NCBI GenBank assembly: GCA_963708025.1
Contig: CAVPSB010000031.1
Location: 1 to 64,000 of the forward strand
Length of the DNA: 64,000 nucleotides
Reading direction: 5' to 3'
From: an uncultured Candidatus Rokubacteria bacterium
Lineage (GTDB): Bacteria > Methylomirabilota > Methylomirabilia > Rokubacteriales > DASRDR01
In this document: positions 8,054 through 19,445 of the stretch, in pieces
Layout of the letters: every line of letters begins with the position of its first letter
Numbering within the stretch: position 1 is the stretch's first letter
Made by a program: the position numbers and the translations under genes
Notes under the pieces: model-generated
The model's input: only the letters and a program-made list of their open reading frames with translations
What the model was told of the DNA's origin: nothing
Databases searched by the model: none

Positions 8054-9107
8054 TCGGGCCTCCTCGGCGCCCCGGTCGGGGGCGCCCGGGAGGCGGCCGA
8101 CCTGCCGATCGGTCTGCTGCGTGACCACGGTCTGCTCGCCCGGCACGCGCCGAGTCACCCTGGCTCTTCCTGTACCAGGACGCCGAGGGCGTCACTGGGC
8201 TTCAAGTGCCCCCGTCCTCCAGACAGGAGACACAGAGCGTGAAGGGATGCCCCCCTGGCGGCGCTCATGCCTAGGAGCGGCCGCGCACGTCTAGCGTGTC
8301 CTGGCCGACCCGCGGCTCGCGGGCTCCTTACGATGGTGTCGAGCCCCGTTGACCCGCCGGGTCTCACCGGCCCGACCGGTGTCCGCATCTGTGGACGCCC
8401 CGTATCGATCCGTGAACGCGGTGTGTCGCTGCGCGCGGGCCTCCGCGGGCCGCAACCTCGCCACCGAGCGGTGGGCCCGAGTGCGGCGCCGGCCGGGCAT
8501 GGCCCATGCTTGCGCCACGGCCGATGCCTCTGTCCTGCGCCGCCGCGCCGAGCTACGAGCCCCGCACGCCCGAGACGTCGATCCTCTATCGCACCGTCCA
8601 GGCCCACCTCGAGAGCTTCCTCGCCCGCACGGCGGGGGAGGACGGCCGACCGGGACTCCCGGGGTTCGTGACGCGGGAGTTCGAGGCCTACCTTCGGTGC
8701 GGGATCCTGGCCCACGGCTTCGCCCGGGTCCGCTGTGAAGGCTGCGCGTTCGAGCGTCTGGTGCCCTTCTCGTGCAAAGGGCGCGGCTTCTGCCCGAGCT
8801 GCGGGGGCCGGCGGATGACCGAGCGCGCCGCCCATCTGGTCGAGGCGGTCCTGCCGCGGGTGCCGGTGCGCCAGTGGGTGCTCACGCTGCCCTACCGGCT
8901 GCGGTATCGGCTCGCGTGGGACCACGGCTTGGCGCGCGCGGTGCTGGGCGTCTACGCCCGGGTGCTCCAGGCCTTCTACGTGCGCGGTGCGCACCGGCGT
9001 GGCATCGGCGGGGGCCGGACCGGGATGCTGACGGTGATCCAGCGCTTCGGGAGCGGCGTGAATCTGAAGAGACACTCATGGTACCTGCCTTTCTCAAGTG
9101 TGCGTGG

Positions 9108-11213
9108 TTATTGAAAGAGCGAGGGCTGCGCGGTCGACGTGTCCCCCGGCAGAACGAGCTCGCCCGTTCGGCGCAGGTGCTCGAGGATGCTGCGGATGGG
9201 CTCGGCTTGTAGATCGGCACGTCGAATCTCCCACGGGGCCCAGGGCGCGAGCTGCTCCACCTTGAGCAGGCCGGCGGCGACCAAGCGCTTGATCGTGGTG
9301 TCGCTCACCTGGAATTCTCTGGCCGCTCGCCCGAGGCTCAAGATCTCCGGATCTGGTGTGGCCCGAGTCTGGCCAGCGATGTGGTGATTGCGCCGCGCCG
9401 TGGCCACCCGCTCCTGGTTCCAGCGCTTGCCTTTGCCGGTCCGGCGCCCCAGCCTGTTCAAGACTCGGGCGATCTCATCGTCGCCGTAGCGCGCGGCCAG
9501 GCGCCGGATCAGCTCGAGATCCTCGAGCGCGGTGGGCCGACCCACGCCCGATCGCGGCTTTGGGCATCGTGAACGCCGTGTGCGTTCCCCCGGTCCAGTG
9601 CATGACGAACGTGAGCGTGTCGGTGGCCTCGTCATGCGTCACGATGATCTCCTCGAGCACCGTGCGCAGAATCTTCTTCTTCAGCTCCGGCGGACACGCC
9701 GAACTCTCCCACACCTCGGCGAAGTGTTCGCCCAGCGCCAGCACCGCGGCTCGCTCGTCCTCGCTCAGCACGGGCCCCTCCTGCTCCAGCTCGGTGAGCG
9801 TCGCCCGCAGCCGTTCGACTTCCGCGAGCGCCGCATTCCATCGCCGCTCCAGCTCCGCGGCCACCAAGCGGTGGCGCGCATCCACGGCGTTGTACTGCTC
9901 GAAGGCGCGGCGCGCCTCGTACTCCGCCTGCTTCGAGCTGGCGGCCGAGCGCGTCCCGGCGCGCGCTGTCCTTCACCGTGAGTTGCTCCAGCGCGTGGAG
10001 GCTGGCGCGCACCCCGAGCGGCGACAGCACGCCGAGCACTTCCTCCGTGATCCGGCGATCCACCGTGCTGCCCCCGAAGCCCAGGCAGTACCGCCCGCCG
10101 GCCTGGAAGTCCCCGAGGCACAGATAGCGCGCCGCCGTCCCGTGCTTGCCCCAGTACCGGACGTGCAGCTTTCGCCCACACCGCCCGCAGCGGAGCAGCC
10201 GCGCCACGAGTCCGAGCCCCGCCCGGATCGCGCCGGTGCCCTCCTCGCGCTCCTGCCGCAAGTTGTTGCGTCGCATGCGTCGCTGATGCTCTTCGTACAT
10301 CGCCCAGTCAATATAGCCCTCGTGATGGTCGGCGAGGAAGACTCGCGCGTCCGTCGGCCGCCGCAGTCGCCCCTGGCGTCGTGCGCGGGCGGCCGTCCAC
10401 CAGCCGGACCTCCACGGGACGGCGGCCATAGACGTAGGCGCCCGCGTAGATGGGGTTGTGCAGCACGTCGCCGATGAAGCTGAGGGTGGGAAGCTGGAAC
10501 ACCAGGTCGATGCGGCCGTGGCGCGCGCGGTTCACCGGCAGCTCGATGCCGTGGTCGTGGAACCACTTGAAGGTCTGCCGGGCGCTCCACGTCTGCCGGA
10601 ACGTCTGGAAGATGAGGGCGATGGCCTCCTGCACCCGCAGGTTGGGATCCTTCACGACCTTGCCGCTGCCGTCGGTGACATAGCCCGGCGCCAGGATGCG
10701 GATCAACTCCCCGCGCTGGGCCTTGGCCTCCATCCCGGCCCCGAGCCGCTGCTTCAACACCTTGAGTTCGACGACGCTCAGGGTGCCTTTGATCCCGAGG
10801 ACCAGTTGATCATCGAGGAGATTCACGTCGTAGACGTGCTCGTGATCCCCCACCAGCGTGTCGAAGATCCCGCACAGCTCGAGCAGGTGACACCAATCCT
10901 TGTCGGTGCGCGACAGTCGGGACAGCTCACGACTGAGGACGATGCCCACTTCGCCGAGCGCCACCGCGGCCAGCAGGCGGTCGAAGCCGTCCCGCGGGGG
11001 CGCCCCCACGGAGGCGCTCCATCCCAGGTCCGCATCGATGACGTCGACCTCTCGCCACCCCAGCGCCCGCGCCCGATCGGCCAGCGCGTACTGCAAGCGT
11101 TGGCTCTCGAGGTTGTGTTGGACTTGGCCGGGCGACGATTGCCGCAGATACACGACGGCCTTCCGGGCCAGCCGCTCTGCGGTGAGCTTAGGATTCGCGA
11201 CCACGGTCGTCAT
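9108..11213 (-). CDS. Large serine recombinase (resolvase + recombinase + Zn ribbon + C-terminal HTH); frameshifts near 10380, 9930, 9550
   Basis: AVVYLRQSS, SRLSR, NPIYAGAY, LRCGRCGRKL, LERRWN. Confidence 0.9.
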
Positions 11214-11358
11214 CGTCGGCCTCCTGTGTCGCCTGGTGCACGGCGATGATGGCGGCGGCCATCAGGCGCAGCAGTGCGGCCTGCACCTTCGACGGCAAGG
11301 GCATCGCTGGCGTTGACGCCGCGTGATCCACGCCGAGGTCGAAGTCGATCTGCTTCAC
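11188..11358 (-). CDS. 56-aa accessory ORF of LSR element 1
   Basis: GGAGG + GTG; KQIDFDL...VQAALLRLMAAAI; a similar ORF sits at the same position in element 2. Confidence 0.6.
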   Translation of the reverse strand: MKQIDFDLGVDHAASTPAMPLPSKVQAALLRLMAAAIIAVHQATQEADDDDRGRES

Positions 11359-11693
11359 GTCCACCTCCCGATGTCGGGTGCGCACCCGTTTGGGGGAGGC
11401 TAGCGTCATTCGATGACGAGGACGAGCTGCTCCGGACCCAAGAGTCCTTCACCAGGATGGCGACGGAGCAAAGTGCCCGAGCGCTGATGACCGCCTGCGG
11501 AGCGAGCTGGATGAGTGCGGCTTCGGGTGCCAGCATCCAGGTGGGGATCACCAGCGCCACACCGGTTGGATCGCGAACGGTCACGGCCTCGTCCCGCTGG
11601 CGAGACCGAACACCTGTCAGTTCCTGGCCATGCAACGGATGGAAAGGGTAGTGGACGACTGCGGAACTTATGGTTTCATGACGCCCTCTTGCT
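11210..11693 (-). CDS. Y4bD/DUF5372-like accessory protein body; its start codon is at 9079 across attP
   Basis: VHYPFHPLHGQ...IPTWML motif; frame open to the element end without an ATG. Confidence 0.7.
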
Positions 11694-12347
11694 CAACGTC
11701 CACTTCCACACGCTGGTCCTGGACGGCGTCTTCGCCGAGCTCACGCCGGGCCGGCTCCAGTTCCACGCGGCGCCACCGCCCAGCGATGCGGCTGTGGCCG
11801 AGCTGCTCGCCACGATCCGCGCACCGGGTGGGGCGCTGCTGGCGCGCCGGGGTCTAGAGCCCGCCGCGGCCGAGCCGGGCCCTCCGGACGGGCTCGCCGA
11901 GGTCTCGCCCGTCCTGGCCCGGATCCTCAGCGCCTCGGTTCAGGGACGCGTGGCTCTCGGCCGGCACGCGGGCGCCCGGGTCGGCCGCCTGGGCGAGGCG
12001 CCGACCGAGGCCGCCGGGCGCGCACGCGGGCCGCGCCAGGCCCACCTGGACGGCTTCGATCTGCACGCCAACGTGTGGGTGCCCCCCAACGATCGGGCCC
12101 GGCTGGAGCATCTGTGCCGCTATCTGCTTCGCCCCCGCTGGTGCAGGACCGTCTGCGGCTCCGGGCGGACGGGCGAGTGGCGGTCAAGCTGAAGAGGGCC
12201 TGGCGCGATGGGACGACGCATCTGATCTTCGAGCCGCTCGAGTTCCTCGAGAAGCTGGCGGCGCTGACGCCGCGGCCCGAGGTCAACCTGGTGCTCTACC
12301 ACGGCGTCCTCGCCCCGCGCGGGGCGGTGACATTGTGCAGCCTTTCG

Positions 12348-14435
12348 TCAAATGCCCGGAATCTCGAGCGTCTGGGAATCGGCGACGCGACTTCGTGGGC
12401 GACGCGTCCGCCCCTCCACCGCCTTCGCGGCGGTGCGAATGGCCTCGGTGTCGAGCACCGCAGGATCGAGCTGCCATGGGGCACACGGCACCACCTGGGT
12501 GGCCTCGAGGATGCCGCGCGTGATGAGCCGTCGCAGCACCCACGGACCGACGCCGAGCCGATCGGCCGCTTGGTTCAGCGTGAGCATGGGCGTCGCCCGG
12601 GCCTCGTCATAGTCCACGAGGCGGAGCCGTTTGCGGAGCGACAGGACGCGCGAGGCCGTCCAGGTGTTGCCGGCGCCCGTGCGCAGGCGCAGTCGGTTGA
12701 GGCTGGCGGCGATCTCGTGATCGGGCCACCCGCCCGCCATGCGCCGCACGACGCCTTCGGCATCCGGGCCGGTCCGGTGGCGATGCTCGCCCGGCTTCGG
12801 TCGGGGAATCCGCACCTCGGAGTGTCGGCCGCCCGCCCAGTGGATCACCAGCACGATCTCGCGCGCGGGCTCATCGGCATTGGCGATGATCTCGTGGATC
12901 AGCAGGCGCGCGATGCGTTGCTTGACGCGCATCTCGCTGCTCGGCGCATCCCAGACTCTGCGGAGATCGGTGGCCAGCGATTCGAGGGTGGCTCGATCGA
13001 CGCGTCACGGATCGCCGCCGCGAGCCGTTCCTTGCGCCTGCAGTCGCCCTTCGAGCTCGGCGACCCGTTCGAGCGCGCCGTTCCAGCGCGCTTCGAGCTC
13101 CGCGGCCACCAGACGGTTGTCAGGGTCGACGGCTTCGTAGCGTCTCGCGGCGAGCGCCGCCTGGTAGTGGGCTTGCTCCAGTTCCAGCGCCAGCGCGCGG
13201 TGCTGGTCGTGCGTCGTGCTGCTCGGCGAGGTCGCCCGCCTCGATCGCGGCCTGCAACGCCTGGCCTTGGACCACCGTCAGGATCGCGGCGCTCACCGTC
13301 TCGTCGGGTCGACGGGCGCTAAAGCCGATGCAGCGCGGGGCGGCCTGCGCGCGATTGGCTTGCCGGCATTGGTAGCGCGCGTAGCCCCCGCGCTCATACA
13401 CGACGTGCAGCATGCGTCCGCACCGCCGCGCAGCGCAGCAGTCCGGCCAGCAAGCACCGGCCGCCGCGGCCGGCCTTGCGGGCCGTGGTGCCCTGTCATG
13501 TGCGCGTTCTCCTCGAGCCGCCGCTGGTTGCGCTCGAACTGCTCCCACGAGATATAGCCGGGGTGGTGATCGCGAATCAAGGCCGTCCACTGGGGCATCG
13601 GCTTGTCGTGCCCGTGCGTCCGAGTCGCGCGGCCCTCCACGACGCGGGTCCGCGTCTCCCGCCGGCCGAACGCGTAGGCGCCCGCATAGAACGGACTCCG
13701 CACGATGGACAGCACCATCCGGTAGGTCGCGGGTCGCCAGGTGATCGCCCGCGGTCGTTCGTGCTCGAGCGTGGGGAGCGACAGGTGCTCGTCCCGCAGC
13801 CACATCAGCACCTGGCGGACGCTGCCGAACTCCACGAGCTTGTCGAGCACCATCCGGATCGCCTGCTGCACGCGCCGGTCCGGATGCCGCTCGATGTGGC
13901 CATCCGGGGTCCACCCCAACCCGGCCGGCAGCGTGAACTGGAGCGCGCCGCGCTTGGCTTTCGCGCGAATGGCCTCCTGGGAGCGCTGCCGAAACAGGCT
14001 GAGCTCGTACTCGCTGATGCTGCCCTTCACGCCCAGGATCAGCCGGTCGTCGGGCAGCGACAGATCATAGACCTGATCGAGATCGGCCACCAGGGTGGCG
14101 AGGAGCCCGCAGAGCTCGAACAGCTGGGCCCAGTCCTTCGAGTTGCGCGAGAGGCGCGAGGCTTCGAAGCACAGGATCAGGCCGACGTGCCCCAGGGAGA
14201 CCTCCGTCGACCAGGTGCTGGAAGCCGGCCCGGTGCGCGAAGCCGGCGGCCGAGATGCCGAGGTCGTCCACGATGGTGACGGGCTTCGGCCAGCCGAAGG
14301 CGACCGCCTTGTCGCGCAGGCCGACCTGGATGCGCGTGCTCTCGGCATGGCTGCGCACTTGCTCGGGGCTGGACTGGCGGACGTAGACGATCGCGGTGCG
14401 CTTCAAGTGCTGGGGGTGATCCTATCGGCCCGCAT
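12348..14435 (-). CDS. Large serine recombinase with several frameshifts
   Basis: AIVYVRQSS, EASRLSRN, SPFYAGAY, CGRMLHV, LEARWN, C-terminal HTH LTLNQAADRLGV. Confidence 0.9.
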
Positions 14436-14436
14436 C

Positions 14437-14617
14437 ACGCCCTCCCGTCGGGGTCGTGCGCGCGAGGCGTCGACCGCGGCGCGCAGGAGCAGCTCGGCCA
14501 CGGCGCGGAGCAGCTCCTGGTGCTGGGCCGCGGTCAGCTCGATCCGGAGCACGACGTCGGCGGCGGGGGGGAACAGCGGGATCTGGGTGGGGATCGACCG
14601 AACTCGTTCGTCGCATC
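14437..14617 (-). CDS. Small accessory ORF of LSR element 2 (frameshifted; ends approximate)
   Basis: QIPLFPP...QHQELLRAVAELLLRA, same position as 11188-11358 in element 1. Confidence 0.5.
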
Positions 14618-14929
14618 GCAGCCCTCCTTCGAGGGCATTGACGCACGAGGGGGGTCGGGCGCGCGAGGCGCGACAGCGTCCAGCAGCTCCCGGAGCTCCT
14701 GCAGCGCCGCGATCGACACGACCGGCGCGCCGACGGTCAGGGCCGCGCACGCCGCGGCATCGGTCATCCAGGCGGGCAGGGCGCCCGTCGCCCCGTCAGG
14801 CAGCTCGCAAAACAGTACTTCGCTGGTCACTCTTGTCCAAATTAGCCCGGAAGGCGGATGAGCCCCCTGGGGTATGGTGAGGTCGAGACCGACCAAGGTT
14901 CGACACCACCACGGACAGGAGGCTCACCC

Positions 14930-16093
14930 GTGAGTGGATTCTGCAGCATGTTCAGCCAGCTGCTCAAGCTGTTTCCGCGGACGGAGTTCCAGGCGCTGGT
15001 GACGCGGACGCACGCCGAGCGCCACGCCCGGGGCTTCACGTGCTGGGGGCAGTTCGTCGCCATGCTGTTCTGCCAGCTCGGCCGCGCCCACTCGCTGCGG
15101 GAGATCTGCGGGGGCCTGCGCAGCAGCGAGGGCAAGCTCAAGCACCTGGGCATCACGGCGCCGAACCGCTCGACGCTGGCCTATGCCAACGCCCATCGCC
15201 CGTGGCAGCTCTACCGGGCCGTGTTCGAGGCGCTCCTGGCGCGTTGTCAGCCCCTGGCGCAGGGCCGGCGGAAGTTCCGGTTCAAGAACAAGCTGGTGAG
15301 CCTGGACTCGACGGTGATCGACCTGTGCGCGACGCTCTTCGACTGGGCGAAGTTCCGACGGACGAAGGGGGCGGTCAAGCTCCATTGCCTGCTGGACCAC
15401 GACGGCTACCTGCCCAGCGTGGTGGTCATCACCGAGGGGAAGCGGCATGACGTGCGGGTGGCCCGCACCCTGCGCTTCGACCCCGGGACCATCGTGGTGA
15501 TGGACCGGGGGTACATCGACTACGCCTGGTTCGGGCAGCTGACGGCCCAGGAGGTGTGGTTCGTCACGCGGCTGAAGGACACCGCGGTGTACGAGGTGGT
15601 CGAGACCCGGCGGATCCCGCTCCAGGGCCGGGTGGAGCGGGACGAGGTCATGCGGCTGACCGGGGTGGGCGCCCCGGACAAGTGCCCGCACCCCTTGCGG
15701 CGGATCGAGGTCTACGACCCCGAGAAGGACATGACCCTGGTGTTCCTGACCAACCACCTGACCTTCGGGGCCACGACCATCGCCGCGATCTACAAGGACC
15801 GGTGGCAGATCGAGCTGTTCTTCAAGGCGCTGAAGCAGAACCTGAAGATCAAGACCTTCGTGGGGACCAGCGCCAATGCCCTCAAGGTCCAGGTCTGGAC
15901 GGCGCTGATCGCGATGCTGCTCCTGAAGTACCTCCAACTGCGCTCCCGCTTCGCGTGGTCGCTGTCGAATCTGGTCGCCCTGCTGCGGATGAACCTCTTC
16001 ACCCATCGCGACCTGTGGGCGTGGCTCGATCAGCCGTTCGAGGGCCCGCCCACCGTCCTCACGACCTCGCAGGGGGTCTTGGCCCTTGCCTAA
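14930..16093 (+). CDS. IS4-family DDE transposase (DUF4372-type N-terminus)
   Basis: LDSTVI, MDRGY, YKDRWQIELFFK (YREK motif); RBS AGGAGG. Confidence 0.95.
   Translation: MSGFCSMFSQLLKLFPRTEFQALVTRTHAERHARGFTCWGQFVAMLFCQLGRAHSLREICGGLRSSEGKLKHLGITAPNRSTLAYANAHRPWQLYRAVFEALLARCQPLAQGRRKFRFKNKLVSLDSTVIDLCATLFDWAKFRRTKGAVKLHCLLDHDGYLPSVVVITEGKRHDVRVARTLRFDPGTIVVMDRGYIDYAWFGQLTAQEVWFVTRLKDTAVYEVVETRRIPLQGRVERDEVMRLTGVGAPDKCPHPLRRIEVYDPEKDMTLVFLTNHLTFGATTIAAIYKDRWQIELFFKALKQNLKIKTFVGTSANALKVQVWTALIAMLLLKYLQLRSRFAWSLSNLVALLRMNLFTHRDLWAWLDQPFEGPPTVLTTSQGVLALA

Positions 16094-18101: not shown

Positions 18102-19445
<1,344 letters not shown>

Follow-up and report, generated by a model that had tools for sequence, protein, structure and literature searches.

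Element 1 is a large serine recombinase (LSR) element of an uncultured Candidatus Rokubacteria bacterium, located on contig CAVPSB010000031.1 of assembly GCA_963708025.1. The stretch analysed, hereafter the window, covers positions 1 to 64,000 of this contig. Element 1 occupies 9064-11693 on the minus strand, the extent given by an original prediction made from the letters of the window alone, and displays an AG core dinucleotide at each end (11693-11692 and 9065-9064). Its plus-strand flanks belong to one IS91-family transposase gene (Zn_Tnp_IS91 at 8506-9114, Y2_Tnp at 11515-12192; Pfam matches PF14319 at 2.3e-19 and PF04986 at 2.8e-4), cut between ...GSGVNL and NVHFH.... The 5' part of this host gene (8506-9063, plus strand) ends with ...GSGVN followed by bases one and two of a Leu codon, which are the core. 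Its continuation (11694-12312, plus strand) resumes after the junction with the HxH (HUH) motif of NVHFH, shifts frame at about 12150 and is then split once more, by a second LSR element.

Element 1 holds three genes on the minus strand. The recombinase gene (9108-11213) has its own AGGAGG ribosome site and ends with a TAA stop at 9110-9108. Its start is overlapped by a small gene of ~56 amino acids, orfX (11188-11358), beginning at GTG 11358 behind GGAGG (11368-11364). The accessory gene is represented by the body of an open reading frame (ORF) without a start codon (11210-11692), similar to DUF5372 and carrying a YPFHPL motif at ~11650-11633. As stated in the original prediction, this frame is open to the very end of the element without any ATG: it runs from 11692 to a stop at 11212-11210, and its first ATG, GTG or TTG is TTG 11635, inside the YPFHPL motif. 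Its folded domain spans roughly 11662-11420 on the minus strand, an extent taken from the AlphaFold2 model of a relative.

The signals that this gene lacks are found at the opposite end, beyond the recombinase stop. A Shine-Dalgarno (SD)-like GAAAGG (9088-9093, minus strand) precedes an outward-facing ATG (9079-9077), which is held by the 20-nt right-end arm of the attachment site attP (9066-9085, minus strand) and is separated by 11 bases from the AG core at 9065-9064. The 20-nt left-end arm (11672-11691, minus strand) is an imperfect mirror of the right one; its codons end with H-E-T, and it is followed by ATA (11671-11669), a position at which a few relatives have ATG. When the two ends are joined, the 16 nt from the ATG to the AG and the bases 11691-11213 add up to 495 nt, or 165 codons, in a single frame. 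The GAAAGG, the ATG at 9079 and the 165-amino-acid joined ORF proposed beforehand are thus all borne out. In this family of elements, attP is situated in codons 5-6 of the first gene, the translation signals stand on the far arm, and joined DNA exists.

The window copy itself is probably a relic, as judged from its reading frames. Aligned with an intact 700-residue relative (L027), its recombinase is split into four segments that occupy three frames, the shifts being located near 10410-10354, 9932 and 9563-9541, hence this copy is probably dead. Element 1 is present as a single copy in its genome (8.2 Mb, 49 contigs), and the host transposase gene is itself frameshifted and carries the second, also broken, LSR element. 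It is very likely that nothing operates any longer at this locus, and that the window copy is a fossil among nested broken mobile elements whose in-frame junction was inherited rather than maintained. The frameshifts may be assembly errors of the metagenome bin, though long ORFs elsewhere in the window are intact. A fossil copy is compatible with a functional split gene at the level of the family, for which the relatives have to be considered.

End geometry and junction frame in the relatives

A scan of species-representative genomes provided 17 loci from 22 pattern matches, located in bins of Rokubacteria, Acidobacteriota, Verrucomicrobiota and Proteobacteria, and a metagenome scan provided 172 relatives from 201 matches, of which the best 80 were kept. 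Nine of the 98 sources were dropped before counting and 89 exhibit a recognisable motif and left arm. The right end is available for 47 loci, four of them being cut at one end, which leaves 43 evaluable for the junction frame. A detection bias is possible, as the right ends were found by a pattern demanding a start-like triplet, with ten added by hand; direct reading of the 15 loci missed by this pattern identified ATG or CTG at the expected position in 12, the other three having no right end on their contig. The length between the ends is ~2560-2664 bp in relatives. The scan of viral contigs returned no relative of the element. One Terriglobia genome harbors three copies and another one two, and these multiple copies together with the varied flanks indicate a transposon-like spread. 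A profile of the accessory family retrieves 1613 cluster representatives at E values up to 0.001.

The ends of the relatives obey a fixed geometry. Every right end is composed of a start codon, 11 nt and a 2-nt core, and every left end of the core, a 20-nt arm terminated by ACC, a variable codon, 7-12 codons and the YPFHPL motif. An apparent 6-nt insertion in the right arm of locus L005 disappeared once this geometry was applied and was dropped. In 43/43 evaluable loci, the joined ORF keeps the frame of the YPFHPL domain and meets no stop; the frame across attP is hence not random among homologues. The linker between the left arm and YPFHPL measures 7, 8, 10, 11 or 12 codons, its insertions and deletions preserving the frame, and, as it varies by whole codons only, translation must begin at or before the end of the arm. 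In the 36-nt stretch that begins with the start codon and closes with the far arm, none of the 27 distinct arm pairs contains a stop in the frame of the start, as compared to 25/27 and 22/27 in the other two frames.

The right-arm start codon is ATG in 35 of the 43 loci, GTG in three and CTG in five. The five CTG loci, all but identical to one another and with a frameshifted recombinase, retain an in-frame ATG located 12 nt upstream behind AAGGAG, as does locus L119; such an upstream in-frame ATG is present in all soil lineages. An SD-like motif, defined as a tetramer 4-16 nt upstream of either start, precedes the right-arm start itself in 15 of 37 distinct right ends and the ATG 12 nt upstream in a further 17. 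The ribosome site and start opposite to the gene body, whose conservation had been put forward as a check, are therefore found together in 32/37 distinct right ends.

The core dinucleotide varies among copies (AG, TG, CA, AA, AC, AT, GC and others). It is identical at both ends in 32/42 loci, including CA/CA, AA/AA, AC/AC and AT/AT pairs, which supports its assignment as the crossover dinucleotide. The core differs between the two ends in the remaining 10/42 (L018, L027, L031, L063, L066, L071, L072, L076, L085 and L094); the copy that then agrees with the host codon is the left one, the right one often corresponding to the usual core of the lineage. The recombinase could tolerate mismatched cores, which would be unusual for its family.

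Naturally joined forms and the proteins of the element

The original prediction called for sequences spanning the circle junction, and natural joined forms do exist (L074, P0039 and P0107). L074 is a metagenome contig of 2733 nt with an exact direct overlap of 123 nt between its ends, which closes a cycle of 2610 bp. A length of 123 corresponds to the largest k-mer of a common assembly recipe, and an assembly cycle needs reads across the junction. The overlap of L074 is traversed by an intact recombinase of 710 residues, and its first gene is uninterrupted, from AAGGAG and ATG through the core at 281-282 to the YPFHPL domain. Two proteins begin with the joined N-terminus as well, P0039 (JGI, 3335-nt contig) and P0107 (ENA, 808-nt contig), and provide weaker support than L074. 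A third protein, P0001 (JGI, 1219-nt contig), starts with MSVS, like the right-arm peptide of the window, and continues with ~40 flank-like residues before the left arm; its contig is not among the kept loci. To note, the three genes of the L074 circle overlap at all three boundaries, such that no base of it is non-coding.

Logan contigs from four soil runs (X1, X3, X5 and X15) aligned to positions 1-900 of L074 break at 280|283 with loose ends that resemble IS91-like host flanks, which gives independent support for the ends of the element. None of the contigs listed for these four runs bridged L074 280-283; since contigs drop rare forms, this has no bearing on the presence of circles. A search with the L074 junction identified the element in 7/401 sampled genomes of the class Terriglobia, all matches stopping at the junction. 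One match at the level of the class that extended 9 nt past it was judged to be a chance match.

The pieces of the window recombinase match PF00239 (9e-18), PF07508 and PF13408, i.e., the Resolvase, Recombinase and zinc-ribbon domains, and the three are assembled in one protein in intact relatives, the length of which is ~697-716 amino acids (33 extracted). The catalytic serine motif VVYLRQSS is found in the window ORF 10308-11213, and residues Y22, L23, R24, Q25, S26 and S27 are invariant in 22 relatives. By its domains, its serine motif, its 2-bp core and its inverted attP arms, the element is to be classified as an LSR element. The circular contig, the several copies per genome and the many different flanks are indirect signs that members of the family may integrate and excise. 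The label "Y4bA-like", which the original prediction had attached to this recombinase family, found no support, a tblastn search of plasmids with the accessory protein having given no match.

In relatives, orfX encodes 55-70 amino acids in frame +2 with respect to the recombinase (613-804 in L074), and displays GGAGG followed by ATG or GTG at one aligned position. It is characterised by a motif L-x-x-LMA-x-AI and is conserved in 21/21 sequences displayed, covering every lineage inspected. Searches of Pfam and PHROGs returned no match for it. On the basis of this conservation, orfX is regarded as a third small gene of the element, new here. It is overlapped, in another frame, by the tail of the accessory frame. 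This tail is missing in two low-GC lineages (L041 and L093), in which the accessory ORF stops at 89-96 amino acids, and the part beyond the folded domain is probably non-functional. The stop of the accessory frame also overlaps the recombinase ATG in 23/33 loci. Translational coupling of the recombinase to the split gene was considered and dropped: the ATGA sequence follows from the second codon of the recombinase starting with A, the recombinase possesses a strong ribosome site of its own, and the overlapped stretch encodes orfX in another frame.

The accessory protein matches DUF5372 (PF17342) at 18.6 bits in the window and at 21.3 bits in L074, below the Pfam gathering cut-off of 25 bits, and the match is partial (profile positions 1-43 of 78); some relatives carry a precomputed PF17342 label. 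No published account was found under the name DUF5372 in the open-access literature searched. An alignment of 39 sequences headed by the natural L074 ORF served to obtain an AlphaFold2 model. In it, the confidently predicted part, residues 21-100 (block means of 78-95 for the predicted local distance difference test, pLDDT), forms four strands and two helices, and residues 1-20 and 101-166 are predicted to be disordered. According to this model, the stretch encoded across attP supplies a start and not a structure. The fold is a generic SH3/KOW-like barrel (best Foldseek E value of 0.027; best VIA Z of 5.3, with a root-mean-square deviation of 2.5 over 55 residues); the fold searches returned nothing beyond this generic barrel, which gives no function.

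Where translation of the first gene may begin

The family-level reading, in which the first gene is split by attP and whole only in the circle, is weakened by several points. Many of the loci are closely related, amounting to ~16 lineages in our grouping, and the counts given above overstate their independence. The overlap of L074 is an assembly cycle and could also stem from a tandem repeat, while P0039 and P0107 diverge part-way through the domain, lie on short contigs and may be degenerate or chimeric. A scan of the L074 circle for promoters of the sigma-70 type identified 0 sites, the promoter types of the hosts being outside that scan. The first 20 residues, besides their predicted disorder, are poorly conserved and add nothing but a start. 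A called start (M) is found directly after the left arm in ~31/147 representatives of the wider family, by our own reading. Finally, the ATG, its distance to the core and the frame relation between the arms could all be by-products of the binding of the recombinase to a palindrome.

This last point deserves to be examined in detail. The attP is made of two imperfectly inverted arms, the outer GG..A...TG positions of which match in 19-27 of 27 arm pairs. The start codon is situated in this conserved outer motif, which reads RTG in one arm and CAY in the other, where it encodes the His of the H-N-T stretch. As 11 nt separate each of them from the core, the RTG and CAY triplets are automatically in frame. 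The right-end ATG might thus be a part of a recombinase half-site, the accessory protein being started inside the element and made in both states, from the codon after the left arm (ATG, TTG, CTG or ATA) or from a GTG in the first strand. Besides the mirrored arms, such an origin is favored by the ~31 representatives mentioned above and by the codon after the arm being ATG in L013, L014, L017 and L078, and TTG in L015 and L016. Yet most soil lineages have CTG at this codon and the window lineage has ATA, others showing AAG, AAT, CCA or CCG. Of the 58 distinct left ends, 35 lack any in-frame ATG, GTG or TTG ahead of the first strand. Such a codon is present in 20 others that lack an SD-like motif, and just three left ends combine the two, as compared to the 32/37 right ends with an SD-like motif upstream of the start.

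The two arms also differ at the critical triplet. In the 27 pairs, the right-arm start position is A24/G2/C1, T27, G27, whereas the mirrored left-arm position is G16/A6/C4/T1, T25, G27; the right arm never displays a non-start triplet together with an intact recombinase, while the left mirror is non-start in 5/27 at position 7 (C 4, T 1). Where the second ATG has been lost, the in-frame ATG behind AAGGAG 12 nt upstream has been retained, and the junction frame is stop-free in 27/27 arm pairs, unlike the other frames. These differences argue that translation adds a constraint beyond that of the palindrome, and a start confined to the inside of the element appears improbable.

The original prediction had itself pointed to TTG 11635 as a start usable in the integrated state. 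This triplet encodes the invariant Leu of YPFHPL, is TTG in just 21/58 distinct left ends and sits within the first strand region of the fold predicted from the relative. In those lineages with a start after the left arm, the protein may also be made when the element is integrated, and the switch may be leaky or lost.

The ORF could also be translated in the integrated state by entry from the antisense strand of the host gene, yielding fusion proteins and depriving the split of any regulatory meaning. The frame is indeed open for tens of codons into the flank in soil lineages, and gene callers often put starts there. These flank starts vary from locus to locus and exhibit no conserved ribosome site, an in-frame TGA closes the frame at the junction in the window and in L011 and L013-L017, and the conserved SD-like motif and start at the opposite end are left without explanation. 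In the window, this TGA (11695-11693) is formed by host bases and the first base of the core. Entry from the host is accordingly a very remote alternative. The called N-termini of the 147 family representatives are inconsistent, with ~31 after the arm, many at varied points of the flank and some within the domain. A gene split by attP explains this lack of a consistent start, and genes present in the circle alone can escape annotation when the element is integrated.

Target gene, putative state switch and known counterparts

Target selection is precise in most of the family. A left flank of 62 nt or more is available for 80 loci. In 74 of these, the element is antisense to an IS91-like gene and precedes x(N/H)xHxH by exactly one codon, the core being the first two bases of the codon that precedes this motif. 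In the window, an uninterrupted transposase paralogue (18369-18542) confirms the spacing of the reconstructed target. The six exceptions are L074, which is the circle itself, L078, which has a deleted flank, L031 and L010/L077/L097. The left flank of L031 (150-220) is not IS91-like; its reading, ...LVTNAHVV..., resembles the surroundings of the catalytic His in a trypsin-type protease, and the right flank is IS91-like. This may result from an off-target event or from a rearrangement. L010, L021, L077 and L097 form a gammaproteobacterial sublineage with the same end geometry and a different target, the flank reading (L/F)NEGM... and the left arm being followed by AAT. Insertion into IS91-like transposase genes one codon ahead of their HUH motif is, as far as the flanks tell, a new point for such an element family, and no published report of LSR elements aimed at these codons was found, in a search whose coverage leaves subscription journals outside. 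The family would thus be made of natural disruptors of another mobile element, hitting the catalytic motif of its transposase. According to abstracts, IS91-like relatives are often linked to the spread of resistance genes.

Two further features of the window deserve mention. At 4-113, another IS91-like gene fragment (92% identical over 36 amino acids) stops exactly at the AG core known from element 1, and the DNA beyond it is unrelated; this may be the trace of a recombinase-mediated rearrangement. The second, more distant LSR element (12313-14850, minus strand) interrupts the transposase gene that hosts element 1, within the codons for ...LYHGVLAPRG. Its recombinase is fragmented, a DUF5372-like remnant (LPAWM...) and an orfX-like stretch are found upstream, and a DDE transposase gene (14858-16093) cuts into its left part; a search for its relatives in the same genome returned only a degraded fragment. 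Its right end displays GAAAGG and an ATG (12333-12331), roughly 8-13 nt from the junction, so that an outward-facing start may be general among such elements.

Taken together, the geometry of the ends and the joined forms suggest the following course of events. The family is widespread and consists of site-specific elements of ~2.6 kb with three co-directional genes, encoding a DUF5372-like barrel protein, the ~60-residue orfX product and an LSR of ~700 amino acids. For the insertion of the circle, the recombinase would use a 2-bp core that precedes the HUH motif by one codon, and the element would come to lie antisense to the IS91-family gene. The ribosome site, the start and codons 1-5 of the first gene are in the arm adjoining the recombinase stop, and codon 6 onward in the other arm, such that integration would part the body of the gene from its start and excision would rejoin them. 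In lineages without an internal start, the circle would be practically the sole source of the accessory protein, while orfX and the recombinase, endowed with their own ribosome sites, would be translatable in either state. A state switch acting at the coding level is likely to be real for the family. The anatomy, the conserved frame and the joined DNA announced by the original prediction stand; that the protein is made only after excision is what we infer from them.

The role of a protein restricted to the circle can be approached only tentatively. It might bias the recombinase toward integration or block re-excision, for example by countering an excision factor such as orfX, a possibility that we hold to be rather doubtful; if true, the element would read its own recombination state. 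A more elaborate and slightly less probable version is that the element senses its state through the integrity of a gene, the circle-only SH3-like protein flipping the recombinase from excision, assisted by orfX, to integration. If so, a three-gene, fully coding circle of 2.6 kb would be a self-contained direction switch requiring no host input, and the family a hyperparasite knocking out the catalytic HUH codons of IS91-type transposases. Serine integrases are highly valued in genome engineering, and the determinants of their direction are a central question. An attP within a gene appears to couple the synthesis of a cofactor to the integrated or excised state, a compact design principle that synthetic circuits could adopt. 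No published case of an attP separating an LSR accessory gene from its start codon was found, subscription journals being here too outside the coverage of the search.

Other mobile elements share parts of this organization. Tn4451 is also an LSR element whose expression depends on the joining of its ends in the excised circle; these joined ends reportedly build a promoter for the recombinase TnpX, as Lyras and Rood are said to have described in 2000. Whereas the junction of Tn4451 is a promoter for the recombinase, that of the element 1 family lies in coding sequence and joins a ribosome site and a start to an accessory gene. Circle-junction promoters are also known from insertion sequences of the IS911, IS2, IS30 and IS110/IS1111 types. 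They resemble the present case by an expression that is specific to the excised circle and turned off after insertion, but they belong to other transposase chemistries and act at the level of transcription, and no reading frame is completed as it is in the element 1 family. Recombination directionality factors are presented in PMC12286644 as small proteins encoded beside the LSR that choose between integration and excision. The likeness resides in a small gene beside an LSR; no link in sequence or fold to the accessory domain was found. The gin-type gene-intervening elements, as portrayed in PMC5595907, contain only a serine recombinase and reside inside a specific host coding sequence. They are likewise minimal LSR elements within specific coding sequence, whereas the element 1 family targets the transposase gene of a mobile element, adds two genes and spreads in a transposon-like manner. 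The archaeal "suicidal integrases" of the SSV type (PMC7253208) have an attP in their ORF, and integration splits their own gene. The element 1 family also has its attP in an ORF, the whole gene being present only in the free circle; while the SSV tyrosine recombinase halves itself, the serine recombinase of the element 1 family stays whole, and it is the accessory gene that loses five codons and its translation signals.

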